DNA from: a virus
Lineage: Duplodnaviria; Caudoviricetes
IMG/VR virus record: IMGVR_UViG_3300005805_000225
Span: 1-36,643 of that record
DNA: 36,643 nucleotides
Reading direction: 5' to 3' (one strand)
Position numbers and translations under genes: made by a program
In this document: piece after piece, positions 1-29,134 of the stretch
How the letters are laid out: each line of letters begins with the position of its first letter
Position numbering within the stretch: position 1 is the stretch's first letter
The notes under the pieces: generated by a model
The model's input: the letters and a program-made list of their open reading frames with translations, nothing else
Database searches by the model: none
What the model was told of the DNA's origin: nothing

Positions 1-1
1 G

Positions 2-979
2 CCAGAGTGTAACCCATTGCTCTGGGTCTTCGTGGGTTTCGAGTAGAGCTGGCATAGCCAGATATGTCCAAGGGACCTGACCACCTGGGTAGCGATCTGG
101 GGAACGTAGTTCCTTGTATAAATCTACAGCGGCAACACGAGTGCCGATAATAATTAACTTACCGGTAGGGTTAAGACGAGACCTAACATCCTGCTGGAGC
201 CACTTAATCTGCTTTTCAAAGTCATTGGCGTTAGATAAAGTTACTGCGTCATCTACGATGATCATATCGGCACGTTTACCGTATATCTGACCGCCGATAC
301 CTACGGCCTCTAGGTTGGGGTCCTTTTCGCTAGATTCGCGTAGTTCCTCACCAAAGGTAACTCGGTTAGCCTGCCAAGAGGCTGTCTTGGTATTAAAGCC
401 CACACCGGCTGCATAAGCATTCTGAAGCTCTTCATACATTGGGTGGGTAAGGCGCTGCTTGATAGCGTAGAGAAAATCAGCCGCTAGGCGCTGAGTCTGT
501 GAGACTATCAGGATTCTAAAGTTGGGGTTGTTAACTATCTTATAGGTGGCATAGTCAACGGTAATCGTAATTGACTTGGCGTGGTTCGGTGGGATGTTAA
601 CTAGGATGCGGTTATCTGCAATACCCTTTTCGTACTTCATCGACTGGTGAAACCAGGATGGGTCCCTACCTTCAATCACATCTACCAGGTTCATCTGGTG
701 AGGGAAGGTCTCTTGCTTTAGGTACTTTAGGCGCCAAGTCTTAAAGTCTAAATTCTTAGCGGTCTCTTCGGTGTAATTCTTCTCTAGAGACCCTAGCCTA
801 GTTCTGTCAGCTAAGGACTTAAAGGCTGGGTCGGAGCGACGGTAGTACTCATAGGTCTTGACTGATTTGCCTGCAACTATGCAGGCTTGCTCTACAGTAG
901 AGCCTTCAGCCATAGCCGCGAGAATTGTCTTCTTAGCCTTCTCGCTAGCTTTAGACCTCGTTGGGTTGGGTGTGTACAC
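2..979 (-). CDS. terL: Terminase large subunit (N-terminal part; runs off the left edge) with an N-terminal HTH extension
   Basis: Not in the ORF track; translated by hand from GTG at 979 (overlapping the upstream TAG): MYTPNPTRSKASEKAKKTILAAMAEGSTVEQACIVAGKSVKTYEYYRRSDPAF...; Walker A-like RILVNIPPNHAKS, GIGGQIYGKRAD, Walker B MIIVDD, motif III LIIIGT; open to the window edge. Confidence 0.93.
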   Translation of the reverse strand, partial: MYTPNPTRSKASEKAKKTILAAMAEGSTVEQACIVAGKSVKTYEYYRRSDPAFKSLADRTRLGSLEKNYTEETAKNLDFKTWRLKYLKQETFPHQMNLVDVIEGRDPSWFHQSMKYEKGIADNRILVNIPPNHAKSITITVDYATYKIVNNPNFRILIVSQTQRLAADFLYAIKQRLTHPMYEELQNAYAAGVGFNTKTASWQANRVTFGEELRESSEKDPNLEAVGIGGQIYGKRADMIIVDDAVTLSNANDFEKQIKWLQQDVRSRLNPTGKLIIIGTRVAAVDLYKELRSPDRYPGGQVPWTYLAMPALLETHEDPEQWVTLW

Positions 980-1326
980 TATTTCTTTTTCTTAGACTCC
1001 CGTCTTGCAATAGCAGAGACGCGGTTATAGGTACGCTCACGGTCTGACCTCATTTGGGTAACTTGACCCTTAGCCCTCTTAATAGCCTTACGTTGTTTTG
1101 GGGTATAGGCAGGTTCATAGACATCTACAATCTCACGTTGGTTTACACCCACGAACTTAAACCCAGCGGATTTCTTACCTTTAGGTTTACCTACGTTAGC
1201 AATCTTTTTTGCTAAGGCTTTACCGCTTTTGCCTTTGGTTTCTTGAAGTAATTTCTTGGTACGTAAGGTTTCATACTGAGCTTTAGTTAAAGGGGTACCA
1301 GAAATTATTGTCTTTCTTTTTGCCAT
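979..1326 (-). CDS. Lys/Arg-rich hypothetical protein
   Basis: 115 aa ORF, AGGAGA RBS upstream, stop overlaps the terL start. Confidence 0.75.
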   Translation of the reverse strand: MAKRKTIISGTPLTKAQYETLRTKKLLQETKGKSGKALAKKIANVGKPKGKKSAGFKFVGVNQREIVDVYEPAYTPKQRKAIKRAKGQVTQMRSDRERTYNRVSAIARRESKKKK

Positions 1327-1424
1327 TAGGTCTCCTAGATTAAACGCCGCGAGATTGATTTTCTCAATGGGATTGGAATGATCTATCAGTGGAATCTGAA
1401 GATAGACCCCTCCCCACTAAAAGA

Positions 1425-1556
1425 GGTGCGAAGCACCGCACTCGGGCTTGAGCGCCCGAGGCGACCACAGGAGCCGAGGGGTAAGTACCGTACGGTTACT
1501 AGGGGCGCGTAAGCGCCCACCGTGTCGCAAATGCTAGGGCGCGTTCGCATTTGCTC
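1425..1556 (+). other. Cluster of GC-rich hairpins with GAA/GTAA/ACA loops (single-strand-origin-like element 1)
   Basis: GGTGC-GAA-GCACC (1425-1437), CTCGGGC..GCCCGAG, GGC-GA-CC-ACA-GG-A-GCC (1460-1475), GGGCGC-GTAA-GCGCCC, GCAAATGC..GCATTTGC; partly repeated at 13774-13812. Confidence 0.55.
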
Positions 1557-1621
1557 CCTATACTGTACTAAGGCGGGAAAAAAAACGCATTTCCCGCTTT
1601 TATCGCAAAAATCTTTCCATT

Positions 1622-1637
1622 TGTGACCAACCTCACT
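1622..1637. promoter_or_regulatory. CRP/GlxR-like binding site
   Basis: TGTGA-CCAACC-TCACT, 9/10 match to TGTGA-N6-TCACA, in non-coding DNA. Confidence 0.5.
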
Positions 1638-1750
1638 TACAAAGGTATACAAAACGGACATATCGTTCACTTTAGTCGAGATATTTATTTGGGGAGTACA
1701 GGCACACCCGCCCGCCCGTTAATAACCCGGGGTGTCTTTTTTGCGCGGTT

Positions 1751-1798
1751 TGCCGGTCTTGTCCGGTCTTGTCCGGTCTTGTCTGACTTGTCCGGTTT
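1751..1798. repeat. Tandem 10-bp repeat (GTCCGGTCTT), about 4-5 partly degenerate copies
   Basis: tgccggtctt gtccggtctt gtccggtctt gtctgactt gtccggttt. Confidence 0.85.
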
Positions 1799-1987
1799 AT
1801 TTATTGAAAGCACGGGAGGGCTTGCTATCCCTCCGGCACACTTTCCCAATTCCTAACACTCTCCCAATTTAATAAACCGCCAGCGCCTACCGGATAGCTA
1901 GCGCCCTGCCGGTGATCTTCCGCCCTGCCGATCTCGCCCCTCTTATTGTTGAAAGTTCAACCAATTAAACCCGCGCTCGGGCGTGTC

Positions 1988-2007
1988 TGTGGATAAATTG
2001 TGGATAA
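1988..2007 (-). promoter_or_regulatory. Two tandem perfect DnaA boxes
   Basis: TGTGGATAA at 1988-1996 and 1999-2007 (TTATCCACA on the minus strand), 11-bp period. Confidence 0.7.
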
Positions 2008-2110
2008 CTTTGTTATGAAACTCTAAGCAATAACTAGGGGAGAGATACCCATAAAGGGTGATAGTGTGCGCCTATCGCTAGCAGATAGCTAGCGGGGAAA
2101 GGGTAAAGCA

Positions 2111-2482
2111 ATGGCAAGATCAAAAGAAGAGAAACGGGCTTTCATAGATCACTTACGCGCTAGCGCTAAGGCGCTAGGCGAAACTAATCCGGTGATCCCT
2201 AGCAATATCGGGGCGAGCTTCTCGCCTAGTAATGCGCTAATGATCCTCTTCCAGCGCCCTAGCGCGACTCAATGCGCGGGTTTCCACGCGTGGCGTGAAG
2301 CAGGGCGGGCGGTGCGTAAGGGTGCGCGAGGAATAGCGATCTTAGTTCCGCTAGGAACACGCACCGATGAAGCGGGCGAGGAAACGCCCGTGTTTAGCTG
2401 GCGATATGTCTTCGACATAGCCGACACCGATCCGCTTAATGATAGCTCGCCACGCCTAGCGCGTGAGTTAGTAGGTGCGTAA
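2111..2482 (+). CDS. ArdC-like ssDNA-binding domain protein (ArdC N-terminal/DUF1738 family), putative anti-restriction
   Basis: FSPSNALMILFQRPSATQCAGFHAWREAGRAVRKGARGIAILVP...VFDIADT fits the family pattern; GAAAGGG RBS; first early gene. Confidence 0.8.
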   Translation: MARSKEEKRAFIDHLRASAKALGETNPVIPSNIGASFSPSNALMILFQRPSATQCAGFHAWREAGRAVRKGARGIAILVPLGTRTDEAGEETPVFSWRYVFDIADTDPLNDSSPRLARELVGA

Positions 2483-2631
2483 TGTCTAAGTCAATGCGTA
2501 AAGAGTGGGCGCTAATAGATAGCGAGGGCGTGGCGTGGGTTATCGCCACCCTAAGCGATACGCGGTTGAGGGTGTTAATGCGTGAGTATCAGAAGCAAGG
2601 AATCACCCTCACGCCTAGGGCGGTGGCGTAA
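2482..2631 (+). CDS. Hypothetical protein, 49 aa
   Basis: Hand-translated MSKSMRKEWALIDSEG...RAVA; TAATG overlaps at both ends. Confidence 0.7.
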   Translation: MSKSMRKEWALIDSEGVAWVIATLSDTRLRVLMREYQKQGITLTPRAVA

Positions 2632-2813
2632 TGTCTAAGCCTATGAGCGCGGTAATGTTGATCCAATGCCTAGCCGGTGAGCTTTATACCGATCCGGCGC
2701 TATTAGTAGAAGCTATCAAGGAAGACCCCGACACCCTGGCGCTAGTGCGAGAGTATGGCGCGGGGCGTGAAGATTACGCCACGATCTTAGAGAGAGTGGG
2801 CGAGCTTATTTAG
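2631..2813 (+). CDS. Hypothetical protein, 60 aa
   Basis: ORF track; TAATG coupling to the previous gene. Confidence 0.7.
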   Translation: MSKPMSAVMLIQCLAGELYTDPALLVEAIKEDPDTLALVREYGAGREDYATILERVGELI

Positions 2814-2898
2814 CGCTTACTATGGGGGAGAGATGCTATCCTCTCCCTCGTGGTATCCGCTAGCAAGGCGCTAGAGGATAAACGAAAGGGAAAAGAGA

Positions 2899-3426
2899 AT
2901 GGAAAGAGTAAGGCTGACCTGTGCGGAAACCGCTAAATTGATCCGCGCCGACTTAAAGGCAAACTATCCGCTAACGAAATTCAGTGTTAAGTCTGACACT
3001 TATTCCGGTGGCGCTTCTATCCGTGTTCGCTGGACGGACGGGGAAACTGTCGAGGAAATCGAGCGCCTAGTTAAGAAATACGAGGGCGCTTCTTTTGACG
3101 GAATGATAGACCTAAAGTCATATAACGAGCCGACACTAATGGCATTCGCGGGGCAGGATGCGCCGGTGCTGGTGTCTTTCGGTGCTGACTATGTATTCAC
3201 CGACCGCGATCTCTCGCCGGAATATATCGAGCAACTATCGAAAGAAGCTCAAAGAGTGCTGGACGATAATCAAGCAACATCGGGGCAGGTATTCGATTAC
3301 AAGGAGTTTAACAGTATGGAGAGTCTAGCGACCGGCTTTGGCGTGGTTGCTTATCCGGTGAGCGGATATTCTCTCGTGCGCTTCCTTTCTCGCCATATCA
3401 AACCAAACGCGAAAGTGGGCGCGTAA
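2899..3426 (+). CDS. LPD29 (large polyvalent protein-associated domain 29) protein
   Basis: TAKLIRADLKANYPLTKFSVKSDTYSGGASIRVRWTDG...FDGMIDL...FGADYVF fits LPD29; CGAAAGGG RBS. Confidence 0.75.
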   Translation: MERVRLTCAETAKLIRADLKANYPLTKFSVKSDTYSGGASIRVRWTDGETVEEIERLVKKYEGASFDGMIDLKSYNEPTLMAFAGQDAPVLVSFGADYVFTDRDLSPEYIEQLSKEAQRVLDDNQATSGQVFDYKEFNSMESLATGFGVVAYPVSGYSLVRFLSRHIKPNAKVGA

Positions 3427-3758
3427 TGAATACGGAAAAGAAGATAAAGCGATCCCTATTTATTGAGGGGCGCGAGTGGTTTGACAAAGTGAACGGAAAT
3501 TCTTACTTTTCCGCAAGGATATGGGTAGACGGGGGGCAGGTTGCGATCCTTACTTTCCAATATGGATACGGAGAACAGTATCTATTCGAGGCTCATCGAA
3601 AACTTATCGAACTCGGCTATTTAGAGGAAGGGGAGTTTATGCGCTCGCTTTGGTCTATCGCTGAAGAGTTAGGGTTTGACTTTTATTCCTCAAAGTCCAG
3701 CGCTAAGAAGTCTGAAATGTTTAAGAAGTATCCAAACTATGAGGAGAGGATCGCGTAA
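3426..3758 (+). CDS. Hypothetical protein, 110 aa
   Basis: ORF track; TAATG coupling at both ends. Confidence 0.8.
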   Translation: MNTEKKIKRSLFIEGREWFDKVNGNSYFSARIWVDGGQVAILTFQYGYGEQYLFEAHRKLIELGYLEEGEFMRSLWSIAEELGFDFYSSKSSAKKSEMFKKYPNYEERIA

Positions 3759-4024
3759 TGAGTCACGCAATAGACGAGTGCGAGTTAAGCACCGCAACAC
3801 TAGACGAGTGCGATCAATGCGGGGAATTAACCGCGTGTATCTGCCTAGGTGCGTTTATAGATGAGTGGGAGATAGAAGCCACCGGCTTAGACGGGTGGAT
3901 GAGCTTCCGCTACCAATACAAGGAGAAGGGGAGTCTAATCGGGCGTTTCGGTTATGCCTCAACCTACCGCGAGGCTATGGACAACATCGCCCACGCGGTA
4001 ATATGCGAAAGAGAGGGCGAGTAG
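3758..4024 (+). CDS. Hypothetical Cys-containing acidic protein, 88 aa
   Basis: ORF track; CDQC..CIC; coupled. Confidence 0.7.
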   Translation: MSHAIDECELSTATLDECDQCGELTACICLGAFIDEWEIEATGLDGWMSFRYQYKEKGSLIGRFGYASTYREAMDNIAHAVICEREGE

Positions 4025-4173
4025 TGTTCGAGATCGGTTTAGAGTGGTGGAGGGGGGCGCTTCAATGCCTAGTCTATGGCGTGGTTATTGTTGCGATCTG
4101 CTGGCTATTGACTAAGATAGATTTACCGGATAGGGGAGAGTCTCCTATCGGCAAAGAGAAAGGGAAAGAGTAA
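4024..4173 (+). CDS. Small single-pass membrane protein, 49 aa
   Basis: GTG start overlapping TAG; hydrophobic ALQCLVYGVVIVAICWLL; 3' part of track ORF 3865..4173. Confidence 0.6.
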   Translation: MFEIGLEWWRGALQCLVYGVVIVAICWLLTKIDLPDRGESPIGKEKGKE

Positions 4174-4478
4174 TGAAAACGAGTGAACTGTTGGGAGGAA
4201 GTGTTAGCCCGTACAAGGAAGCATTAGAGTGGGGAGGAGAGCCTAGCGAAAGAATAAGACAAGGGCAGATGATAAGAATAACCCGCGAAGGCTTAAAACC
4301 TAAGACCGGCTACGCCTACAAGGAAGAGAACTGTTGGTTAGGTATTAGGTACACCTGGCGAAGTAGTAGGTGGTGGAGTTTGCTTAACTACAATAACCCT
4401 TTAACGAAGTTAGAAGCAAAAGAGTTAGACGGACAAGGGAAAGAGTATTGGGTGACACTATGGGAAAGGGTGAGGTAA
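4173..4478 (+). CDS. Hypothetical protein, 101 aa
   Basis: ORF track; GAAAGGG RBS; TAATG coupling. Confidence 0.8.
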   Translation: MKTSELLGGSVSPYKEALEWGGEPSERIRQGQMIRITREGLKPKTGYAYKEENCWLGIRYTWRSSRWWSLLNYNNPLTKLEAKELDGQGKEYWVTLWERVR

Positions 4479-4597
4479 TGAGAGAGGCTGAAGAAATACC
4501 CGCTAAATATGCTAAATGGATATGGGATTTGATAGACCAATTAGCCTTGGCAAGAGTACGGATCAAAGAACTAGAGGAAGAGAAAGGGAAAGAATAG
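4478..4597 (+). CDS. Hypothetical protein, 39 aa
   Basis: Hand-translated MREAEEIPAKYAKWIWDLIDQLALARVRIKELEEEKGKE; GAAAGGG RBS; coupled at both ends. Confidence 0.65.
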   Translation: MREAEEIPAKYAKWIWDLIDQLALARVRIKELEEEKGKE

Positions 4598-4731
4598 TGG
4601 AAGAGATACTAAACCCTGCTAAGTGTATAGACTGTGGGGAAATCTACGAGTTAGACGGGTTAGACCTAGACCTCCGGTGCGAGGACTGCGTAGAACAATG
4701 GGAGATAGACGAATTAGAAGGGAAAGAGTAA
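4597..4731 (+). CDS. CxxC..CxxC Zn-finger microprotein, 44 aa
   Basis: GTG start with GAAAGGG RBS; CIDC...CEDC. Confidence 0.65.
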   Translation: MEEILNPAKCIDCGEIYELDGLDLDLRCEDCVEQWEIDELEGKE

Positions 4732-4859
4732 TGAATGAAGAACAATGCCGACTTTGTGGCTATTGGGTAGATGAGGGTGGTTTATCTTCTCGTGGCTTCT
4801 GTGGAATATGTCAAACCGCTTTCGAGGCAGGGCTAAGTGAAGGGAGTAAAAATGCCTAG
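4731..4859 (+). CDS. CxxC..CxxC Zn-finger microprotein, 42 aa
   Basis: MNEEQCRLC...CGIC; GAAGGG RBS; TAATG coupling. Confidence 0.65.
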   Translation: MNEEQCRLCGYWVDEGGLSSRGFCGICQTAFEAGLSEGSKNA

Positions 4860-4995
4860 ATATAACTTTGAGGTAGTGAAGAGCTATCAAGTCACCGCCG
4901 GATCAAAAGAGGAGGCGCTGGAGATGATTAACTCTGAGCAGGAATACGACTACCTAGTGAGCGAGGAATGGGGAGAAGTGATCGTCAGTGACTAG
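4852..4995 (+). CDS. Acidic hypothetical protein, 47 aa
   Basis: Hand-translated MPRYNFEVVKSYQVTAGSKEEALEMINSEQEYDYLVSEEWGEVIVSD; GAAGGGAG RBS. Confidence 0.65.
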   Translation: MPRYNFEVVKSYQVTAGSKEEALEMINSEQEYDYLVSEEWGEVIVSD

Positions 4996-5079
4996 TGATT
5001 TACTTTGTCAAGTATCCTCGACTTTCGGGAGTGTCGCCGTTTGCGATCTGCCAAAATTGGATACCAGCAAAAGTCACTT

Positions 5080-5088
5080 TGATACAAT
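5080..5088 (+). promoter_or_regulatory. Extended -10 promoter (TGA-TACAAT)
   Basis: In the intergenic gap 4996-5127, upstream of a hairpin and GAAAGGG RBS. Confidence 0.55.
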
Positions 5089-5127
5089 AGGGGAGTGCCA
5101 CCAAGTCGGTGACACAGAAAGGGAAAG

Positions 5128-5298
5128 ATGACTCACAAGATAATCGCTGAAGTGCTACACCAATATAAGGAAGGTATGGGTGGGGCGTGGTTCTCAGACC
5201 TGATAAATGAAATGGCGACTCGGCTATACCTAGAAGATGACCGATTCGACATAGATCAATTCATCAACGAGTGCCAAAGGGGGAGAGCTAATGTCTGA
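5128..5298 (+). CDS. Hypothetical protein, 56 aa
   Basis: Hand-translated MTHKIIAEVLHQYKEG...EDDRFDIDQFINECQRGRANV; GAAAGGG RBS. Confidence 0.7.
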   Translation: MTHKIIAEVLHQYKEGMGGAWFSDLINEMATRLYLEDDRFDIDQFINECQRGRANV

Positions 5299-5410
5299 GA
5301 AGGAAGAGCAAGAGTGGAACCCTGAACTCTGCTGGCGGTGTCAGAAGAGACCAAGGCGACACTATGAAAGCAAGTATTGTCAGAAGTGTAAGGACTGGTT
5401 GAAATCATAA
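5291..5410 (+). CDS. CxxC..CxxC Zn-finger microprotein, 39 aa
   Basis: MSEKEEQEWNPELCWRC...YCQKCKDWLKS; AAAGGGGG RBS. Confidence 0.6.
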   Translation: MSEKEEQEWNPELCWRCQKRPRRHYESKYCQKCKDWLKS

Positions 5411-5526
5411 TGAATTGCGATCTTTGCTTCACTTATGGAGTCCAAACAATATCAACCTCAATAAAAGGAGAAAGGGTAGAAGTATGTTTCAAGTGTATGG
5501 AGGAGAGAAGTAATGCGCGAGTATGA
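5410..5526 (+). CDS. CxxC..CxxC Zn-finger microprotein, 38 aa
   Basis: MNCDLC...VCFKC; TAATG coupling. Confidence 0.6.
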   Translation: MNCDLCFTYGVQTISTSIKGERVEVCFKCMEERSNARV

Positions 5527-5713
5527 ATATGAAGTGACCTTCTTTGGATCGCATTGGAAAGCTTCCGTTTATGTCTATCACGAGTTAGACATAGAGGAAG
5601 GGGAGGAGGAACGCGACAAGGTTCAAGGGTGGGCAGAAGGCGTAGCCGATCAGTTAGGACTTGGACTTGGCGATTTCCACGAGGTAGTCATTACGAAAGT
5701 GGCGACCCTATGA
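5513..5713 (+). CDS. Acidic hypothetical protein, 66 aa
   Basis: ORF track; GGAGGAG RBS. Confidence 0.7.
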   Translation: MREYEYEVTFFGSHWKASVYVYHELDIEEGEEERDKVQGWAEGVADQLGLGLGDFHEVVITKVATL

Positions 5714-5874
5714 AGTGCGGAGTATGCCAGCAACATTATGGCGAGTTAATGATTCCTCACGCCGAAGTGTGCGAGGATGATAGAAAAGCACCGGCGCAGA
5801 GATACTCGCCGGAGAAAACAATAAACGACATCAAAAGAGAAAGGGATGAAAATGAAGGTCACAATTACAGATAG
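5710..5874 (+). CDS. Putative Zn-finger microprotein (CxxC..H..C), 54 aa
   Basis: ATGA overlap; MKCGVC...HAEVC; 3' part of track ORF 5554..5874. Confidence 0.6.
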   Translation: MKCGVCQQHYGELMIPHAEVCEDDRKAPAQRYSPEKTINDIKRERDENEGHNYR

Positions 5875-6127
5875 AGAGATACACAGTTATAGCCTAGATG
5901 TAATGGTAGAAGTTGAGGGCAGAAAAGATCGGGTAAAGATTTACTACGATCCGCAAGACGGCTATGAATTATTATTCTTTGACTCAACGGGCAGGATAGG
6001 AAGTAAGCCTCAATGGGCAATAGATTATGAAGAGAACAGTAGCAGTTGGGATTCTCTAGGCTATTGGCTAGAGGAGCAGGCTAACGGGCGTTGGGTTTGG
6101 ACAGATAAGGAGGAAAGTAATGTCTAA
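5852..6127 (+). CDS. Acidic hypothetical protein
   Basis: ORF track; start chosen from spacing to GAAAGGG at 5839-5845. Confidence 0.75.
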   Translation: MKVTITDREIHSYSLDVMVEVEGRKDRVKIYYDPQDGYELLFFDSTGRIGSKPQWAIDYEENSSSWDSLGYWLEEQANGRWVWTDKEESNV

Positions 6128-6281
6128 TCAACTAACAACAGAGGAACAGATAGCCTTGATCATAAAGGCGACAAAGCTAGGCAAGAGAGCCAAAGTCCGG
6201 CGAAACCTTGTCTATATGAAGACAGCACTCGGCGCGACCCTCGTGCCGGTAGAAGTGGAGGATGAAGATGAAGTTAATTAA
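6120..6281 (+). CDS. Hypothetical protein, 53 aa
   Basis: Hand-translated MSNQLTTEEQIALIIKATKLGKRAK...; AAGGAGG RBS. Confidence 0.65.
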   Translation: MSNQLTTEEQIALIIKATKLGKRAKVRRNLVYMKTALGATLVPVEVEDEDEVN

Positions 6282-6558
6282 ATTCTATGAGGTATGCGAT
6301 CCCCAGGATAACGCGGTATGGGGAGGGACTAGCACTATCGAGGCGCTGGAGTGGTTTCGCAGGGCGCTAGACCGGAAGGTCTATGTAAGTGTATGGGATG
6401 AGGAAGACCCTGAAGAGCCTCGCCTAGTCACCGACAAGATAGAAGTGACTCCTATTATGAGAACCTGCCTAGCTTTTACCTTAAATAATACCTTTAATCC
6501 TAAATCTACTAAACCTTGGGATGAAGGAAAGACTAAACAATGGAGGAAGTTTCAATGA
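6262..6558 (+). CDS. Hypothetical protein, ~96-98 aa
   Basis: ORF track; GGAGG upstream of the second ATG (6268). Confidence 0.75.
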   Translation: MKMKLIKFYEVCDPQDNAVWGGTSTIEALEWFRRALDRKVYVSVWDEEDPEEPRLVTDKIEVTPIMRTCLAFTLNNTFNPKSTKPWDEGKTKQWRKFQ

Positions 6559-6632
6559 TGATGCTTGGGGTAATCCTTATGTGTCTGATAGCCTATGTCC
6601 TATTATGTATGGAGGGAGATAACGAGTGGTAG
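6555..6632 (+). CDS. Tiny hydrophobic peptide, 25 aa
   Basis: MMMLGVILMCLIAYVLLCMEGDNEW; GGAGG RBS; fills the gap between neighbours. Confidence 0.5.
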   Translation: MMMLGVILMCLIAYVLLCMEGDNEW

Positions 6633-6910
6633 ATGTAGAGAGGCGGATAAAGACCGCCACTACCCACGCAGTAAGGCAACGCAACTACCGGAGGCAGAGA
6701 GATCGAGCGCTAAGACGCTTAGGTAATCTCTACCCCGACCAATACCGAGAATTATTGGAGGAGGAGAGGGCGCGAGATGAAGCTGAGGGTAAAGTTTGGC
6801 TTGATATTAGTGGCAGGACTAACGCTAACTTGGGCGCACCAACCCCAAGCAAGGCAAGTCAAACTGCCAACGGACTTGGTAATAGTAGCGAAGAAGGCGA
6901 GCTGGGATGA
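6626..6910 (+). CDS. Hypothetical Arg-rich helical protein, 94 aa
   Basis: ORF track; GGAGGGAG RBS; overlaps the next gene by 134 nt. Confidence 0.65.
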   Translation: MVDVERRIKTATTHAVRQRNYRRQRDRALRRLGNLYPDQYRELLEEERARDEAEGKVWLDISGRTNANLGAPTPSKASQTANGLGNSSEEGELG

Positions 6911-7190
6911 GAAGCAAGAGAACCGGAGAATCGCCAAGGCTTACGCTAGTGCGGGATGGGGATGGAGTGGGAAGGAATGGGTCTGTCTCAGATTACTCTG
7001 GACTTACGAATCTCGTTTTGACCACTTGGCAAAGAACCCAAAATCATCAGCTTTCGGAATCGCTCAACGACTTGGAGAGCGAAATCCAGACCCTAGAATC
7101 CAGATACTTAGAGGTTTGCGCTACATTGAACATCGTTATCAGCGACCTTGTAAGGCTTGGGCTTTTTGGAATAAGAAAGGACACTACTGA
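6777..7190 (+). CDS. Secreted or membrane-anchored lytic transglycosylase (SLT/Rpf-like lysozyme fold)
   Basis: N-terminal signal-like segment; CLRLLWTYES (catalytic Glu), NPKSSAFGIAQ, GLRYIEHRY..PCKAWAFW..KGHY. Confidence 0.8.
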   Translation: MKLRVKFGLILVAGLTLTWAHQPQARQVKLPTDLVIVAKKASWDEKQENRRIAKAYASAGWGWSGKEWVCLRLLWTYESRFDHLAKNPKSSAFGIAQRLGERNPDPRIQILRGLRYIEHRYQRPCKAWAFWNKKGHY

Positions 7191-7351
7191 TGTATAGACT
7201 ATGGCTACGCTTTGGGATCAAACGAGGGTGGATAAGTAAACCTTATTGTATGACTCACGAGGGTAATTATGATTATATGACAGAGGAAGAGCGTGATGAG
7301 TGGGATATTGGCGGAGATCCTTGCCATATCGCTATCTCTGTATTAGAATAG
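7190..7351 (+). CDS. Small Cys/His protein, 53 aa
   Basis: Hand-translated MYRLWLRFGIKRGWISKPYCMTHEG...GGDPCHIAISVLE; TGATG coupling; GAAAGGA RBS. Confidence 0.7.
   Translation: MYRLWLRFGIKRGWISKPYCMTHEGNYDYMTEEERDEWDIGGDPCHIAISVLE
7321..7349 (+). promoter_or_regulatory. SigmaA-type promoter for the downstream sRNA
   Basis: TTGCCA (7321-7326), 17 bp spacer, TAGAAT (7344-7349); predicted start ~7355-7356. Confidence 0.65.
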
Positions 7352-7354
7352 AGT

Positions 7355-7421
7355 TGCTAGGTAGTTATCCCCTTTCGACCTAGCAAAGAGAAAGCCCTGG
7401 TGTATAGCCAGGGCTTTTCTT
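7355..7421 (+). ncRNA. Putative ~65-nt sRNA with an anti-Shine-Dalgarno-like loop
   Basis: Stem TTGCTAGGT/ACCTAGCAA (7354-7362/7378-7386) with 15-nt loop AGTTATCCCCTTTCG, then an intrinsic terminator; own promoter; no ORF. Confidence 0.6.
7391..7421. terminator. Intrinsic terminator between convergent units, probably bidirectional
   Basis: AAAGCCCTGG-TGTATAG-CCAGGGCTTTTCTT with an A-rich 5' flank. Confidence 0.85.
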
Positions 7422-7593
7422 ATTGGTCGGTTGAGTAGAACCCAGCGCCTCGGAAGGTGATAGGGGGTGAGGACCAGACCCTACTCATTAGACTGCCACA
7501 GTTAGCACAGGAGGGAGTGCTAGCTTCGGCGTGGATAGAACGCTCAACGAATGAAGTAATTGAGCAGTCCAGACATCTGTATTCATAAGTCAC
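7420..7593 (-). CDS. FmdB-family zinc-ribbon protein, 57 aa
   Basis: Hand-translated MTYEYRCLDC...CANCGSLMSRVWSSPPITFRGAGFYSTDQ; YEYxC and F.G.GFY.TD motifs. Confidence 0.85.
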   Translation of the reverse strand: MTYEYRCLDCSITSFVERSIHAEASTPSCANCGSLMSRVWSSPPITFRGAGFYSTDQ

Positions 7594-7973
7594 AATGGTA
7601 ATCCATAGTCAGTATGAAGGAAGCCAACAAGTTTCATCTTCTTAGAAGTGTTAGCAAACTCTGTAGTCGTAGGCATCCAGCGCTCTTGCCAAGCAGGTTC
7701 GGGAACGCGGGAGAGATCGAAGCCCCACTTACCTTCCGGTGTGGAGTTGATGTACCAAGGCGCTAGGTTATGGTAGGTAGCTTCTAACATCAGTCTTTCA
7801 TACTTACTCTTCTCAATGAGAAGTTCAGGGTAGTGAGTATGCCTACATTTGAGTTCAATGAATAGACCTCTGGCTATTGTGGTGCAGTCAAAGGAATCGT
7901 AAGTGGATTCTGATTTAACAAGATCGGGGAAGTGGCTACCTTTAAGATAGTCAAAGAGTTCTTGTTCGTTCAC
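7590..7973 (-). CDS. PD-(D/E)XK-like nuclease
   Basis: FDC...FIELKCR catalytic-type motif. Confidence 0.6.
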   Translation of the reverse strand: MNEQELFDYLKGSHFPDLVKSESTYDSFDCTTIARGLFIELKCRHTHYPELLIEKSKYERLMLEATYHNLAPWYINSTPEGKWGFDLSRVPEPAWQERWMPTTTEFANTSKKMKLVGFLHTDYGLPL

Positions 7974-8602
7974 GCCCAGGGACTCTCTCCGCCGAGTGCT
8001 TGCTGAAGTTTACGCATAGATGAAGTAGCTCTTCTATCAGCGCTAGATACTGCACACTCTAGATACTGTGCTAGTTGGTGTAGCGTAGCCGCTTCGTGAT
8101 AGCGCATACGCAAAATCGTTTGGTCTTCCTGCTCTAACTTTAGATAAGCCTTCTTGATATCTATGAGCGTAGCTAACAGGTTGCCACCCTCAGCCGGAGC
8201 TGACTGCTTCTTTGGTTGCCCATCGTTAATCATATTCTGAGCCTGCTCTAAGGCTGTGTTATCTATGATAGATGCAATAACAAAGGGCAGTAATTGAGCT
8301 AAGGTAGCAGTGTCATAGAAGGCTTCATCGCCTATCCGATAGCCGGACTTTGCAGCCTTTTCTTTACGAGCATAGCGCTCTGCGTGGCGCTTCATCTGCC
8401 AAGCGATACGCCTTTCATTAGCGATACGCTTGATAGTATTCTCTTCGTTTAACTGATCTTGAAAGCTATCTGACCTAGAAGTAGCCCAGGCATAGCATTC
8501 CTGTAGCACATCTTCCTTCTCTACATATCCTCTAAACCTGCGATAGACAGAATGGGCAACGCCAGGTGCTATCTCAAGTAGAGTAGGATGCAGTTCAGTC
8601 AT
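7970..8602 (-). CDS. Phage sigma70-family (ECF-like) sigma factor
   Basis: EKEDVLQE (region 2-like) and LEQEDQTILRMRY...TLHQLAQYLECAVSSADRR...MRKL (region 4 HTH); start trimmed to MTELHP. Confidence 0.7.
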   Translation of the reverse strand: MTELHPTLLEIAPGVAHSVYRRFRGYVEKEDVLQECYAWATSRSDSFQDQLNEENTIKRIANERRIAWQMKRHAERYARKEKAAKSGYRIGDEAFYDTATLAQLLPFVIASIIDNTALEQAQNMINDGQPKKQSAPAEGGNLLATLIDIKKAYLKLEQEDQTILRMRYHEAATLHQLAQYLECAVSSADRRATSSMRKLQQALGGESPWA

Positions 8603-9014
8603 TAGGTATCTCGGGCCACTTCTTATCAAGAACCATAATTGCAATGGCTGAGTAGTTAAGTAAATCTATGAAGGAGTCTCGGAGACTTTCGTTTGAGGGA
8701 GATACTCTGCTATCAAGGAGGTTATTGATGCGAGCCACTTTGTCCCACATTCGCACTCGGAGTCCGTTGAGTGCGCCACCTGGACTGTGAGCGATGTTCT
8801 TCGGGCCGTAATCACGATGCTTGCGGATGAGCAGATTTCCAGCGGAGTCCAAGATGGTCCAGATATCTCTAATGAACTCATCATCTACTTCCTTGTGGGG
8901 ATTGGCTTGCAGGTTATCGTTCCACTCTTGTAATCTATCGAGACTATTATCATCCCCATATCCATCAATAATCTGGCTGCCTCTTGGAGATCTTTTTTCT
9001 TGCTCATTCATCAT
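8595..9014 (-). CDS. DUF1599 / nucleotide-modification-associated all-alpha domain protein
   Basis: KHRDYG..N...VRMWDKVARINNL...ESLRDSFIDLLNYS. Confidence 0.75.
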   Translation of the reverse strand: MMNEQEKRSPRGSQIIDGYGDDNSLDRLQEWNDNLQANPHKEVDDEFIRDIWTILDSAGNLLIRKHRDYGPKNIAHSPGGALNGLRVRMWDKVARINNLLDSRVSPSNESLRDSFIDLLNYSAIAIMVLDKKWPEIPND

Positions 9015-9652
9015 ACTCCTCCTACTAGGTTGGTTAGTTCGTCTTTACCATTAGCCAGATAAAAGTCCGTAATGTCCATACCTGGTGGTAATTGTACTAT
9101 TTGTGAATTTACTACCTCACTTGCGACACGCCGAGCGAACTCAGCTCCTGGATTAGTTTCCTTATCCTCTCTTGTGTCGTTATCTCCGATGACATAGATG
9201 ACATCAAAGCCAGTAAATAATTTTGGATAGAAAGGTTTCCAAGCAGCAACTCCTGGTACTCCTACTGCTGGGATACCTGTCTCATTCATAATGATCGCAT
9301 CAAACTCACCTTCACAAATGACTATCTTTGGTGAGTCATAACTCGTTGCAACAACATTATAGAGATGACTCTTCTGACCTACCGGAGCGCCATACTTTGG
9401 CTTGCCATCATCTAACCTACGAAACTTGAAACCTACACAGATATCTAAAGCTGTGAAGTAGGGAATAGATATCCAGCCGGCGTAACCCTGATGACCCTCA
9501 ATAGGATCGACTATAGTTCCAAGACTATAGCGAGCGGCAGTTACTTCAGATATTCCACGTGCGTCTAGATATGCCAGCGCCTCTTCGCTTATTGCCTGAG
9601 CGTACCTGTGCGCCGCCTCGCTTAGCAATGTCGACTGCGTAGTTGAGAGCAT
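9011..9652 (-). CDS. DNA primase, catalytic Toprim part
   Basis: YLDARGI, KPKY, VICEGEFDA, GVPG, GDND, DITD motifs. Confidence 0.9.
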   Translation of the reverse strand: MLSTTQSTLLSEAAHRYAQAISEEALAYLDARGISEVTAARYSLGTIVDPIEGHQGYAGWISIPYFTALDICVGFKFRRLDDGKPKYGAPVGQKSHLYNVVATSYDSPKIVICEGEFDAIIMNETGIPAVGVPGVAAWKPFYPKLFTGFDVIYVIGDNDTREDKETNPGAEFARRVASEVVNSQIVQLPPGMDITDFYLANGKDELTNLVGGV

Positions 9653-9929
9653 CCTTAAACCCCATATTCTCGTTAGCCATTACAACATCTACTGCTGAAC
9701 CACCCTTACCGCAAGTGTGGCAGTAATATAAATTATCGTAAGTGTTCATCACTGCACTCCGGCGTGAGTCATCGTGCATACAACATCTTACTGAAACGCT
9801 TTTACCCTGCTTAACTTCGCCACCGTAGTGAGCGACTATCAAGTCTATGGGGATTGCACTCGCATCTGAGTTGCCTTTTCCCCTACCTTTACGTACCACC
9901 CTGCTCCAGTCTTGTGTAGACAAGTGCAA
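9546..9929 (-). CDS. DNA primase CHC2 zinc-binding domain (separate gene)
   Basis: CCMHDDSRRS...YYCHTCGKGG..VD.V......FKDA. Confidence 0.85.
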   Translation of the reverse strand: MHLSTQDWSRVVRKGRGKGNSDASAIPIDLIVAHYGGEVKQGKSVSVRCCMHDDSRRSAVMNTYDNLYYCHTCGKGGSAVDVVMANENMGFKDALNYAVDIAKRGGAQVRSGNKRRGAGISRRTWNI

Positions 9930-10021
9930 TCTCCTTTGCAGTATCCGTGTAGCTCTTCTGCCTTATCGTAAGTACCTTTGGCATTGAAGTCACCACCTAC
10001 CTGACAGTCAGTGCAGATCAT
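9845..10021 (-). CDS. Small Cys/His-rich protein, 58 aa
   Basis: MICTDC...HGYCKGDCTCLH; ATGA overlap with the resolvase stop. Confidence 0.65.
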   Translation of the reverse strand: MICTDCQVGGDFNAKGTYDKAEELHGYCKGDCTCLHKTGAGWYVKVGEKATQMRVQSP

Positions 10022-17345: not shown

Positions 17346-17570
17346 TTACTTAGAAAGGGCTGCGATTTCTTCTGCGGTTAAACCAAGTGCTGCAAGTTTC
17401 GCCTGAGCGCTTGCCTTAGCAGCCTCAGCCTCAGCCTTTGCTGCTTCTTCTGCGGCCTTAGCCTCAGCGAACGCTGCTGCATCAGCCTCTCTTTGTTCTA
17501 TTTCCTCGGCGGTTAATTCAACCTCTGAGGTGATTCCGGTGGAGCAGTCCACTATGAGTTTAGTTGGCAT
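17346..17570 (-). CDS. Fibre-associated Ala/Glu-rich small protein
   Basis: ELTAEEI...AKASAQAKLAALGLTAEEIAAL; GAAAGGA RBS. Confidence 0.7.
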   Translation of the reverse strand: MPTKLIVDCSTGITSEVELTAEEIEQREADAAAFAEAKAAEEAAKAEAEAAKASAQAKLAALGLTAEEIAALSK

Positions 17571-22762: not shown

Positions 22763-23343
22763 CTAGTTAAAACCCTGGAAATCAGAGACTAACTCGCCGC
22801 GTAAATCTGAAAATCCTTCATATTGGATTACTAGGTTTGGGTGGGCTATGTAGGCATTAGTCCTATCGGCCCAGAGCCTATAGGCAACATCTATCCATCT
22901 GTCAAACTCTCTGGCTATCTGGATAAATAAATCCACCTTAGCCGGATTTACACAGTAGGCCTGAGTTCCTGTTGAGACTACCTGCCTGACCCAATGTTTA
23001 TTGACTGGCTTGACATCGTTCTTTATAGCGCCAAGATAGAAGATATCCCAATTCTTGGGTAGGTCAGCCATATACTCATCTAGAGCTTCGTTGAAATCTT
23101 CTCTGAAGAAAGCATCATCTTCACAGATTAGAACCATCTCATCAGGTTTAATCTTGCGTAAAACCTCTATGTGGCTGAGTCTGCCAGCATCTATTGGGTC
23201 CATACCCATAACTTTGCCATCCATAGCAGGATGGATTTCAAAGTCAAAGCCTATTCTTTTAGCCTCTTTAGTGAAGGTTTCTAGCCGATCCGAGCGCCTT
23301 GGAACATTGATGACAATGATTCTGTCAAAGTATTTTTCAAGAC

Positions 23344-23347
<4 letters not shown>
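22763..23347 (-). CDS. Glycosyltransferase family 25 (GT-A)
   Basis: [36 protein letters not shown]. Confidence 0.85.
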
Positions 23348-24068
<721 letters not shown>

Positions 24069-24072
<4 letters not shown>

Positions 24073-24413
24073 GAGGTTGTCACCGCTCCTGTCACAATAA
24101 ACTTACCTTCAAGAAGTCTTGTAGTAGTTGCACCAGTTGTAACTACCAAGTCATAGGCATACCTACCAGCAGCGATAGCGCCAGTAGTTGTGGCATCAAT
24201 AGTCACTGTAATTCTGCCATTTGCATTATCAAATACCATACGACCATTAGCAGTAGTTGCAACTACTGTGGTCGTTGAAGCGCCAACAAATGGGCGCACA
24301 GTCATAGTTCCGGTATAGCCAGTTAGATTCCAAGGAGTAGAATCATTCTTGATTTGGAACTGAAAATTAAATGTAGTTGCCTGATCGCAGACTAAGTTAT
24401 ATTTCGCACTCAT
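24069..24413 (-). CDS. Beta-sandwich virion adaptor-like protein
   Basis: DQATTF...[13 protein letters not shown]...GRITVTI...YAYDL...RLLEGKF.V; precedes the collagen gene. Confidence 0.6.
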
Positions 24414-24700
24414 CAGGAAGAGACCTGCCTGAGAGCAGCCGCTGCAGGTAGACCAGAAGTGCTAGCGATGTAATTACATACGCCATTAAAATCAAGCCAA
24501 TCGGCTTTAGAAGCAATCCCAGCGATTTCATTCAAGACTCCTACAGTATCTGTAACAGTAAGAGTGACACTGCGTTCAGCAGCCCATTGCTGGGCAGCCT
24601 TAGCCATATCAACCATATCGGCAGCAATGCGATAGGTACCACCATTTGCAAGACGATTCAACTCATCATTAAGAGTTGTACCATAGACTCCCAGTGCCAC
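24413..24700 (-). CDS. Hypothetical virion protein, 95 aa
   Basis: ORF track; AAGGAG RBS. Confidence 0.75.
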   Translation of the reverse strand: MALGVYGTTLNDELNRLANGGTYRIAADMVDMAKAAQQWAAERSVTLTVTDTVGVLNEIAGIASKADWLDFNGVCNYIASTSGLPAAAALRQVSS

Positions 24701-24710
24701 TTCTTACTCC

Positions 24711-24869
24711 TTACTTCTTCTTTTTTGCTACTGCTGCGTTATCAACCAAGTTAGGATAGGGACGACCTGCTGCCTTAGCTCGCTTCTTAGCGGCAGACTT
24801 TTGTGCAGGCGTTAACTTCTTTGAGGTCTTCTTAGGATTCTTTGTATCCCAAAATGCTTTCTTCTTCAT
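24711..24869 (-). CDS. Small Lys-rich protein, 52 aa
   Basis: Hand-translated MKKKAFWDTKNPKKTSKKLTPAQKSAAKKRAKAAGRPYPNLVDNAAVAKKKK; ATGA overlap. Confidence 0.75.
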   Translation of the reverse strand: MKKKAFWDTKNPKKTSKKLTPAQKSAAKKRAKAAGRPYPNLVDNAAVAKKKK

Positions 24870-25144
24870 CGGCAACTACAATCCCAAGCCCGTAGGGACT
24901 TGTTTATTCTAGAGTTTGGATTCTTTGCAGTTTTTGCAGATGTGAGTTTTGATTTCATACCGCACATCCTTGAGCAGAATGACTTGCGTCTTCCTGCTGC
25001 TTTAGGAGATTTCTTAGCCTCAGCCTTCTTGACTGGTGGCTTCAGGTTCATCCCTTGCGCTTTGGCAGATGCTCTGCCTTTAGCGTTCAATCCACCCTTT
25101 GGGTTCTTACCCTCTGATCTTTGCCAAGCCGGTGACTTTGCCAT
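24866..25144 (-). CDS. Small basic protein (DUF6321-like)
   Basis: GKNPKGGLNAKGR...RRKSFCSRM...SRINKSLRAWDC. Confidence 0.75.
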   Translation of the reverse strand: MAKSPAWQRSEGKNPKGGLNAKGRASAKAQGMNLKPPVKKAEAKKSPKAAGRRKSFCSRMCGMKSKLTSAKTAKNPNSRINKSLRAWDCSCR

Positions 25145-25265
25145 ACTCTCCGTACTTTCCTAGGACGGCTCTGATAGTTCCATTCTTGTTAAGACGAACT
25201 ACCATTCCATCTCTGATTTGGACTTTATTAAATTTCTCGCGTCTGCGATATTGCCCTGAAGACAT
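25107..25265 (-). CDS. Small basic protein, 52 aa
   Basis: Hand-translated MSSGQYRRREKFNKVQIRDGMVVRLNKNGTIRAVLGKYG...; TAATG coupling. Confidence 0.65.
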   Translation of the reverse strand: MSSGQYRRREKFNKVQIRDGMVVRLNKNGTIRAVLGKYGEYGKVTGLAKIRG

Positions 25266-25450
25266 TACTTCTTCTTGCCCATTTTCTTCATACTTGCTTT
25301 GGGCTTTGACATTCCTGCTTCGCTCATAGCGATAGCAATGGCTTGCTTACGAGACTTAACTACTGGTCCCTTTTTGCCGGAATGAAGAGTTCCTGATTTG
25401 AACTCGCGCATTACTTTGGCGACTTTCTTCTTTCCGTTCTTCTTCTTCAC
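25265..25450 (-). CDS. Small basic protein (DUF6496-like)
   Basis: KVAKVMREFKSGTLHSG..GPVVKSRKQAIAIAMSEA. Confidence 0.8.
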   Translation of the reverse strand: MKKKNGKKKVAKVMREFKSGTLHSGKKGPVVKSRKQAIAIAMSEAGMSKPKASMKKMGKKK

Positions 25451-25593
25451 TTGGCAGCCTTTCCTGGTGCGCCCTTCATCAAGGACTCATAGGTCATAAA
25501 TGGCTTGTCATTTGTATCTGGTGGCCAAGGAGTGTATTCATTCTCCTCTGGTTCAAACTTATTACTGTATTCGTTTGGGTAGTTTCCTGGCAT
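25447..25593 (-). CDS. Hypothetical protein, 48 aa
   Basis: Hand-translated MPGNYPNEYSNKFEPEENE...GKAAK; AAGGAG RBS; GTGA overlap. Confidence 0.6.
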   Translation of the reverse strand: MPGNYPNEYSNKFEPEENEYTPWPPDTNDKPFMTYESLMKGAPGKAAK

Positions 25594-27820: not shown

Positions 27821-29134
27821 CTAAAATGCTCCGGCTCGTTCTCTGCCTAGAGCGCCACCAGCAGCTCCAGATGTACCGGAGAATGCTGCGGTTTCAAGTT
27901 CAGCAAGTTTGCGACGCTTGCGCCCCGCCTCTGCTGAACCTGGGATAGCAAAGACTTCTTGCTCTGCTGTCTCTTGTGTAAATGGACCAAGGCCTTGCTT
28001 GGCATAACGCTCTCCAAGCACTTGAGCCTGTGGTAGAAATTCTGAAATTGTTGTAAATCCTTGACGTGCTTGCTCGGCAGTAACTCCAAAGCGTTGAAGT
28101 TCTTCTGCTCTAGCGCGTCCTGCTCCAAGGCCAGCCATAGTTGCAGCGCCACCGATTTCAGCGGCACCAACCTTACGCTTGATATTCTCAATAGCCTTCT
28201 CTGGGTCTAGAACATAAGCCAAGATATCGCCATTGGAAATCTCATCACCGTAGTATTGAGTCAAGGCATCCTTGATTTGAGGTGCTGCATTGATAACTCT
28301 GCGTTGTGCTGTTTGGATACGATCTTCTAGTTCAATGGGAGATACATCTCCAGCGATTAGTTTTTCAAATCCCTCTTGACGACCCATATCCCCGCGAGCG
28401 TAATAGGTATTCGGTAGACCATAACGGCGCATTACGTCCTGATATTTGTCTTCTTCTAAAATGTATTCTGCTTCAGATAAAGCGCGTAATCCTTTATTGA
28501 TTCGTGCTTGGTTAGCAGCAAAGCGTTTCTTGTAGGCATCCGTCTCGCGTAATCTAATAGTAAACTCTGCTGGAGATACGCCAGACTCAATCAATCCTCG
28601 TAGTGGCTCTACTAATGCCTGCAATCCATAGTTACCGAATTGTTGCAGTAGAAGATCAAATGCAGATTGGCGTTGCGCTTTTGCTGCAGCTTCTGCCTCA
28701 GCTTTTGCCCTAGCAGCATCTGCTGCTTTTGTTCCTCTAGCTTGTAGAGTTCTGCTACCATCAGAATAGACTAAATAAACATCGCCAGTCTCTGGGTCAG
28801 TATAAGTTCCAGTAACGGTTTTGCCACCGCCACCACCGGTAGGTCCTGTGCCACCTGTAGGACCGGTTCCGCCTGTGGGTCCGGTACCTCCTGTTGGACC
28901 GGTGCCACCTGTTGGTCCTTGAGGACCAGTGGGTCCAGGTGGCTCTTCTGTTGGTACTTCTTGTGGTGTAGTGGTGACAGGCGTTGGAATAACACCCATA
29001 GCCTGTAATCTTCTACGCTCAGGTTCATCAAATACTTCTGGGGTAGGTGTGGGGAAACCAGTCATAGAGGCTTCTTCAGCCATACGGAATCTTGCCGCAT
29101 CAAATGATGGCGTACTCTTCTTTTTCTTAGCCAT
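27821..29134 (-). CDS. Probable internal virion (ejection) protein with GPTGGT repeats, 437 aa
   Basis: Helical Ala/Glu/Arg-rich body, (GPTGGT)x4 linker; position in the late operon. Confidence 0.55.
   Translation of the reverse strand: MAKKKKSTPSFDAARFRMAEEASMTGFPTPTPEVFDEPERRRLQAMGVIPTPVTTTPQEVPTEEPPGPTGPQGPTGGTGPTGGTGPTGGTGPTGGTGPTGGGGGKTVTGTYTDPETGDVYLVYSDGSRTLQARGTKAADAARAKAEAEAAAKAQRQSAFDLLLQQFGNYGLQALVEPLRGLIESGVSPAEFTIRLRETDAYKKRFAANQARINKGLRALSEAEYILEEDKYQDVMRRYGLPNTYYARGDMGRQEGFEKLIAGDVSPIELEDRIQTAQRRVINAAPQIKDALTQYYGDEISNGDILAYVLDPEKAIENIKRKVGAAEIGGAATMAGLGAGRARAEELQRFGVTAEQARQGFTTISEFLPQAQVLGERYAKQGLGPFTQETAEQEVFAIPGSAEAGRKRRKLAELETAAFSGTSGAAGGALGRERAGAF

Follow-up and report, generated by a model that had tools for sequence, protein, structure and literature searches.

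The DNA analyzed here, called the window, is the whole 36,643-nucleotide stretch of a 36.6-kb virus record (IMGVR_UViG_3300005805_000225, completeness 91%). Its minus strand carries the terminase, capsid, tail, lysis and replication genes together with genes for WhiB and a sigma factor, and a cluster of small genes is located on the plus strand at positions 2111-7351, of which the first is an ArdC-N gene and the last are a transglycosylase-like gene and a 53-aa ORF. This plus strand cluster is referred to as early, the labels early and late being assigned from gene content. In a phage collection, the top matches for the transglycosylase (45%) and the capsid (51%) were the cultured Planktophila phages F5 and E7 (PMC10202952, available text), and the host is therefore probably a freshwater actinobacterium, as judged from these protein matches. 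When genome contigs were searched for a host link, the 53-aa protein gave no matches, and the transglycosylase matched three short proteobacterial MAG contigs that were taken as uninformative on the host. At the end of the plus strand cluster the following features were identified:

6777..7190, plus strand: transglycosylase-like gene, which served as anchor in the search for relatives
7190..7351, plus strand: conserved 53-aa ORF of no known family, which hosts the promoter-like site and is absent upstream of 57 of 97 RNAs
7321..7326, plus strand: -35-like hexamer TTGCCA, within Pro-Cys-His codons of the 53-aa ORF
7344..7349, plus strand: -10 hexamer TAGAAT, overlapping the Leu-Glu-stop codons of the 53-aa ORF
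7355..7421, plus strand: predicted small RNA of ~65 nt with two hairpins, its start placed from the -10 position
7354..7386, plus strand: 5' hairpin with a 9-bp stem (arms 7354-7362 and 7378-7386), supported by stem covariation
7363..7377, plus strand: 15-nt seed loop AGUUAUCCCCUUUCG, with the core CUUUC at 7372-7376 and variable "address" bases 5' of the core
7390..7418, plus strand: intrinsic terminator between the convergent gene blocks, scoring on both strands
7420..7593, minus strand: FmdB-like gene, the last of the convergent minus-strand block

An earlier note on this DNA had described a promoter-hairpin-terminator unit here, and all parts of it were found where it had placed them and are conserved in relatives. 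The promoter, which it had set in the intergenic gap, lies instead within the last codons of the 53-aa ORF, the last T of the -10 box (7349) being the first base of the TAG stop. With its 17-nt spacer, TTGCCA-TAGAAT is the top promoter-like site in positions 1-10000 of the window (score 10/12); since it is situated inside the end of an ORF, it could, from the window alone, be a coding accident. The element is non-coding, the fold z on its plus strand is -5.4 to -6.0, and the covariance model R1 finds it as a single copy in the window. A search of the window against Rfam 15 at E<=5 returned rli61 alone, at 26 bits where the cut-off is 50, and no match at gathering score fell on the element in nine relatives.

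Two other functions of the loop were considered and rejected. Its resemblance to what we take to be a DnaA box motif is not conserved, and for a minus-strand mini-gene using the loop complement as RBS, a start follows in only 23 of 96 cases, is ATG in 2, and lies in no conserved frame. Elsewhere in the window (~1988-2008), two TGTGGATAA repeats, presumably DnaA-box-like, are located upstream of the first early gene; they also occur in L045.

To follow the unit in other phages, relatives were fetched from IMG/VR with the 53-aa protein, a downstream protein and the transglycosylase. The element was taken as the first terminator-like hairpin 3' of the transglycosylase gene; eight loci were corrected by hand, and for about 20 RNAs the 5' end was placed using the loop motif itself. 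The anchor gene was present in 170 of 194 sequences. Seven sequences with no terminator in reach, six with another genome layout and three that were set aside (L147 was later found to carry the element) were dropped, as were L176 and L193, which have a terminator without a clear anti-SD loop. In total, the unit was found at 152 IMG/VR loci, which correspond to 97 distinct RNA sequences with differing upstream genes, and an estimated ~1100 IMG/VR stretches match the anchor-gene patterns. One locus (L023) contains the 53-aa gene and lacks the element, and the element is absent from the cultured Planktophila phages F5 (whole genome) and E7 (13.5 of 39 kb).

A promoter-like site, defined as a TAnnnT box with TG or a -35 element, was present upstream of 82 of the 97 RNAs, namely in 34/40 behind the 53-aa gene, 29/36 directly behind the transglycosylase gene and 19/21 behind others. 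A similar promoter count gave 74 of 93 RNAs versus 6% of background windows. Within the 53-aa gene, the codon supplying the TA of the -10 box ends in TA in 37 of 40 relatives; in the -35 region the Cys codon is TGC in 39 of 40, and the Pro codon is mixed. As the site is kept behind varied genes and the TA codon is biased, it is maintained independently of the 53-aa protein. In 27 aligned two-hairpin sequences, six of seven base pairs in the 5' stem have substitutions in both partners, a covariation score that was reached by none of 500 shuffles nor by slid controls, while the CUUUC of the loop is 90-100% conserved. An exposed pyrimidine core, (C/U)UUUC, was detected in 88 of the 97 RNAs, compared with backgrounds of 4% and 18%. 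Some relatives display the anti-RBS loop on the terminator hairpin, or have an additional anti-RBS stretch at the 5' end. On this comparative evidence the unit appears to be a real and uncatalogued phage RNA gene family. The RNA is undescribed in the literature as far as available to us; the readable tables of Fremin et al. (2023; PMC10690425) contain no match, and it may sit unnamed among the 10,006 candidates of that study.

The position of the unit also bears on the possibility that it is a 3'-UTR element of the early mRNA, which would fold back on upstream RBSs in cis or as a processed fragment, the internal promoter being secondary. Only a few bases separate the unit from the last stop codon, its terminator is also that of the operon, and the early region of relatives contains hammerhead ribozymes and long hairpins able to cut mRNA. 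Moreover, a clear promoter was not recognized in 15 of the 97 RNAs (including L148, L161, L179 and L182; stem overlapping the upstream stop codon). What speaks against a 3'-UTR element is that the promoter-like site of the other 82 is found behind unrelated genes and constrains a synonymous codon position, and that the RBSs matched by the loop lie 1-5 kb upstream. We regard this explanation as unlikely; it is at the same time compatible with an RNA that acts in trans.

The loop is complementary to the purine-rich RBSs of several early genes, from which the following predicted targets were derived:

2097..2103, plus strand: predicted target RBS (GAAAGGG, duplex) of the ArdC-N anti-restriction-like gene, start 2111
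2883..2890, plus strand: predicted target RBS CGAAAGGG of the LPD29 gene, start 2899; 8-base match behind a conserved hairpin leader
4158..4164, plus strand: predicted target RBS (GAAAGGG, duplex), start 4173
4464..4470, plus strand: predicted target RBS (GAAAGGG, duplex), start 4478
4582..4588, plus strand: predicted target RBS (GAAAGGG, duplex), start 4597
5117..5123, plus strand: predicted target RBS with the strongest plus strand duplex (-16.2 kcal/mol), start 5128
5276..5282, plus strand: predicted target RBS AAAGGGG (duplex), start 5291
5839..5845, plus strand: predicted target RBS (GAAAGGG, duplex), start 5852
6611..6623, plus strand: possible further target, RBS of a 94-aa ORF (start 6626); wobble-rich, -15.5 kcal/mol, with a weak family signal (z 2.2)

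Besides the ArdC-like and LPD29 genes, six small ORFs thus have matching RBSs. Of the 11 copies of GAAAGGG in the window, seven stand before plus strand starts. The other copies are at 5470 before a 9-codon frame, at 17353 on the plus strand with no start, at 14688 inside a minus-strand gene and in the loop's own complement. The seven early sites listed in the earlier note are real, but the numbers quoted there as starts are motif positions, the starts being at 2111-5852. Its assignment of GAAAGGC or GAAAGGA to the minus-strand starts 27211, 26205, 17570 and 14404 was confirmed as well; the strand called late, though, also carries replication genes, and on the plus strand the 53-aa ORF (7190-7351) has GAAAGGA as its own RBS.

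Loop matches of at least 7 bases were found at 8 of 23 plus strand and 2 of 47 minus-strand starts (p 0.0014; hand-checked starts, counted with a loop slice that is shifted by one base and includes one stem A). The two exceptions on the minus strand are the RBS of the major capsid gene, with 8 bases of which one is from the stem, and that of the holin gene, with 7 bases. In terms of energy, the best of all starts is at 21717 on the minus strand (-18.7 kcal/mol, via wobble pairs). Pairing with the host anti-SD is stronger for early RBSs (-10.6 kcal/mol) than for minus-strand RBSs (-6.9 kcal/mol), so early RBSs are stronger SD sequences in general, and the early/late contrast is in part due to this difference. 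In the bare duplex, a change of the last G of GAAAGGG lowers the stability by 3.3-4.1 kcal/mol. The proposal that the RNA discriminates by a single base holds to that modest extent, but the capsid and holin RBSs also match.

Several of the matched RBSs are preceded by long and irregular hairpin leaders (window 2814-2884, 2037-2097 and 4126-4158), the first of which is conserved in L068, L117 and L129; presumably these could be RNase III processing sites, as in T7. More generally, a structured leader followed by one of the best-matched RBSs is often found at the start of a unit, and in some relatives this leader contains a hammerhead ribozyme: a Type II hammerhead (Rfam match) is located at L068:6952-7018 just 5' of an early RBS of the loop-matching type, and hammerhead-like cores were recognized by eye in L073, L106, L113 and L129. 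Many inner early genes have overlapping stop-start codons and a different RBS, so that blocking the leading RBS might also lower the expression of coupled downstream genes. Upstream of the start at 5128, the window contains a non-coding element, TTTGTCAAG...TCGGGAGTGTCGCCG (4995-5128), which recurs directly 3' of the terminator in L092, L098, L099, L116, L118 and L179 and may mark the end of a mobile cassette.

Across the 97 RNAs, the loop bases 5' of the core vary (ACCCUUUC, AUCCUUUC, CCUCUUUC, ACUCUUUC, UACCUUUC, CCCCUUUC and others), and these variable bases track the RBS of the own phage (GAAAGGG, GAAAGGAUAAG, GAAAGAG, GAAAGGUAG, AAGGGGUA). The relation was quantified at 85 loci whose early region spans 2.5 kb or more. 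Per kb of early sequence, GAAAGGG was found 0.54 times at loci with the matching loop versus 0.09 without, GAAAGGA 0.41 versus 0.13, and GAAAGAG 0.55 versus 0.21; for GAGGGC and GAAGGC, the loop class did not predict the early RBS. The longest perfect complements of the loops, up to 14 bases, are mostly located just 5' of start codons. The nearest relative by anchor gene (L068, 96%) has the loop CCCUUUC and six GAAAGGG sites, and L196, which has nearly the loop of the window in a different stem, has GAAAGGG before its 110-aa gene. The check proposed in the earlier note, covariation of loop and early RBS in related phages, thus came out positive.

In a 78x78 matrix of predicted duplexes, RNAs fitted their own early starts better than those of other phages (z -0.70, p<1e-4, in a permutation that ignores relatedness). 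Own minus-strand starts were fitted no better (p 0.17), a contrast that is not relied on because the early and minus sets differ in gene-call thresholds. On the minus strand, GAAAGGA was not rarer where the loop reads GAAAGGA (5 in 118 kb versus 10 in 412 kb), which argues against discrimination by one base as a general rule; for GAAAGGG, the counts of 0 in 177 kb versus 6 in 353 kb comprise too few sites to show avoidance of the cognate tag. In relatives with a GAAAGGA loop, specificity appears to come from pairing that extends into the spacer, up to 12-14 bases.

When 51 gene families were tested, covariation was concentrated in three early ones, a beta-clamp-like family (z 4.0), a 110-aa family of no known family (z 3.7) and an Ocr-like family (z 3.0), of which only the first two passed correction for 51 tests; the labels are weak profile matches, with the Ocr-like one at E ~1e-3. 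Most early families showed covariation near zero. None of the three best-covarying families has a member in the window, whose own targets are therefore predicted by analogy. The 110-aa gene is found with at least six RBS variants (GAAAGGGU, GAAAGAGAG, CGAAAGGAUAAG, GAAAGGUAG, AAGGGGUA and GAUAGGA), each of which complements the loop of its own phage, while several members of this family do not match. Over the families as a whole, mismatches with the own loop are numerous (e.g. L272, L314 and L080). As for the notion that the RNA silences the early gene class as a whole, a subset does match, but this comprises only 8 of the 23 window starts at 7 or more bases and 3 of the 23 early families that clearly covary. 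The loop is therefore more aptly called an address of 7-13 bases, specific to a subset of early genes, than a class-wide one-base switch.

For replication, 160 further loci were fetched by target gene, at which 66 gene-RNA pairs were callable. Per family, 25 non-redundant new pairs were tested, mis-called RNAs included; "new" denotes upstream sequence outside the original family set, and a few (L199, L201) are near-copies of loci viewed earlier. Own loops matched more bases than permuted loops in one of the three covarying families (6.04 versus 5.12, n=25, p<1e-4) and in a second (5.88 versus 5.07, n=25, p 0.0007). Shared ancestry was addressed on trees. Among the pairs listed, binary independent pairs pointed in the expected direction but were too few to be significant, and plain sign tests on tree-disjoint pairs were not significant either (p 0.14, 0.29 and 0.31, the first two on 13 tree-disjoint swaps). 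In these swaps, gains were large (2-9 bases) and losses were all of one base, for which reason a sign-flip test of magnitude was chosen afterwards; this post hoc test gave p 0.021 and 0.012, compared with p 0.13 for the clamp-like family (4 pairs) and p 0.09-0.62 for six control families. Taken together, these sequence comparisons suggest that compensatory change of loop and RBS is well supported but not proven, and relatedness may still account for part of the signal.

Two side observations concern individual families. The early 200-aa protein (L007:905, L149:7687 and relatives) resembles two DNA polymerase III beta clamp domains and could be a clamp mimic or decoy. For the DUF1599 gene (window 8598-9014, minus strand, and homologues), the RBS matches the own loop less than expected by chance (z -4.2), being GAAAGGG only where the loop reads GAAAGAG; this pattern is clade-confounded and was left out of the argument.

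The match between loops and RBSs could also have arisen if the RNA targets host mRNAs and both loop and phage RBSs merely follow the SD habits of the host. The loop core would then be what we take to be a mimic of the host 16S tail. In 16 of the 97 RNAs there is moreover a second, constant loop GAGUGCUA, mostly without a partner elsewhere in the phage locus, and a precedent exists in the actinobacterial 6C sRNA, a chaperone-independent repressor of many mRNAs that acts via C-rich loops (PMC6486639, available text). A common dependence on the host does not account for matches that extend to spacer bases unread by the 16S tail (AUAAG), that differ between close relatives of one clade (L121/L122 versus L125-L127) and that are confined to particular phage gene families, and we give host targeting as the origin of the matches very little weight. 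The GAGUGCUA loop itself is found in the terminator loops of L026, L027, L071, L095, L120, L134, L135 and others; it resembles what we assume to be a CIRCE half-site, making host groES/groEL a possible target. In L008, L070, L078, L101 and L112, a complement of GAGUGCUA lies just 3' of the terminator.

Early RBSs are strongly homogenized per genome, which suggests recombination or gene conversion. The loop might accordingly be a copy of such RBS cassettes within a hairpin that stabilizes the 3' end, or the RNA might protect or activate the matched RBSs. The match, though, is inverted and single-copy, is held open in a loop by covarying stems, and was sometimes moved into the terminator loop or doubled. 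In addition, the pairing covers the SD itself. A role other than repression therefore seems very improbable to us.

We favor, as the probable explanation, a phage sRNA that acts in trans to prevent some of the phage's own early genes from being translated. What the sequence shows is the unit with its covarying stem and exposed pyrimidine core, together with the match of loop and own RBS at homologous genes; that the unit is transcribed, that the RNA pairs in infected cells, in which direction it acts and when are inferences from these features. According to this model, the unit at the end of the plus strand cluster would yield a stable RNA of ~65 nt, whose exposed loop would nucleate on the purine core (GAAAG/CUUUC), zip into the spacer and cover the SD. 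Specificity would reside in this fixed core together with 2-8 variable address bases reaching into the spacer, not in one base. The effect is predicted to be repression because the paired stretch is the SD itself. The promoter looks host-type and would fire from the start of infection, so that the delay would arise from accumulation of the stable RNA. The result would be a pulse of anti-restriction and takeover proteins, with ribosomes freed later, as RegB does in T4. The central claim of the earlier note, a self-contained small RNA gene with a loop that reads the phage's own plus strand RBS signature, is thereby supported at the level of sequence comparison.

T4 RegB acts on early mRNAs at their SD regions, leaves late mRNAs and most middle mRNAs untouched, and was proposed to free ribosomes at the early-to-late transition (PMC3014915, available text). 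Both systems would address early SD regions through a phage product for a similar purpose. RegB, however, is a protein nuclease that needs S1 and recognizes a fixed GGAG consensus, whereas here a base-pairing RNA with a phage-dependent address is predicted. As the element is non-coding, it does not belong with protein effectors such as RegB and RegA, neither of which was matched in the profile scan of window ORFs.

Closer in design is the c4 antisense RNA of phages P1 and P7, a structured RNA whose loop occludes an RBS and whose variable loop bases set the target (PMC5320573, available text). As with c4, loop and target RBS region covary between related phages. In contrast, c4 has three stem-loops, is cut by RNase P and serves a lysogeny immunity system (PMC5320573), while the unit has one or two hairpins, its own promoter and several dispersed early targets. 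The Rfam C4 model did not match the element in the window or in nine relatives. No integrase, repressor or antirepressor was found among the 60 window ORFs scanned (record 91% complete), and there is hence no sign of lysogeny.

The parallel raises superinfection exclusion, in which a resident phage would block early genes of kin with the same address, the variants being exclusion groups as with c4 of P1/P7. The address exists in at least six variants, between which the tree shows repeated switches, a pure self-timer offers no obvious cause for such diversification, and the covarying targets include Ocr-like proteins. This is countered by the scan for integrase and repressor genes, by the core common to all variants and by wobble pairing, which blurs the classes (only 41 of 78 RNAs had their own genome among the best-ranking quarter). 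Exclusion as the main function thus appears improbable.

Among bacterial RNAs, 6C/B11 likewise uses C-rich loops to pair with several mRNAs without Hfq, in the likely phylum of the host. It is host-encoded, with conserved C-rich loops and host targets (PMC6486639, available text), whereas the unit presents a single main C/U loop that contains 2-4 C, and a variable address; its targets are predicted to be the phage's own, and it does not match the family model. Features of trans-acting sRNAs in general, i.e. an own promoter and intrinsic terminator and a conserved unpaired seed complementary to target RBSs, are recognizable here as sequence predictions. PreS of lambda, which is Hfq-bound and has mainly host targets (10.1101/2024.10.31.621285), and VpdS, which regulates host and phage mRNAs (PMC12197685), are likewise phage-encoded base-pairing sRNAs of the lytic cycle. 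In the available text of the latter, a 2025 review, and of 10.1101/2024.10.31.621285, no sRNA is described that targets an RBS signature shared by the phage's own early genes; the targets of most characterized phage RNAs in the available sources are host mRNAs or a single site in cis.

A phage-specific extended RBS, termed SAS, precedes many non-structural genes of cluster K mycobacteriophages; it contains conserved bases that 16S cannot read, and whether an RNA or a protein binds it was left open (Pope et al., 2011; PMC3203893, available text). No partner RNA is described in the available text of that study, whereas the phage family of the window has a candidate reader. More tentatively, we propose as a possibility that an RNA address code exists, in which one small RNA and dispersed early RBSs share a phage-specific tag that changed on both sides together on several occasions; it would time the shut-off of anti-restriction and takeover genes, might define exclusion groups, and the same design of separate origin could account for extended RBSs such as the cluster K SAS and the GACAGGAG tag of F5. 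If true, an RNA reading a coevolving RBS tag on several own genes would represent a different solution from the protein RegB and would be widespread in an abundant phage family. The SAS question of Pope et al. (2011) would become directly testable, and natural orthogonal RNA/RBS pairs expected to function without Hfq would be available.

Two further observations in other phages are given as leads only. In Angelica (L352, HM152764), a single reverse SAS is located at ~28620-28665 in the loop of a long plus strand hairpin, inside the annotated hypothetical gp92, and is a candidate anti-SAS RNA; within two mismatches, no reverse SAS was found in 28-52.8 kb of TM4. In Planktophila phage F5 (L350, OX376641), a 21-bp hairpin on the minus strand (32683-32738), with a loop complementary to GACAGGAG, belongs to the replication operon leader and follows the holin terminator and an AT-rich promoter region. 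Seven starts of the F5 small-gene cluster (22847-25468), as well as the next gene downstream, have ACAGGAG before them, and the hairpin may represent an analogous design in a cultured phage.
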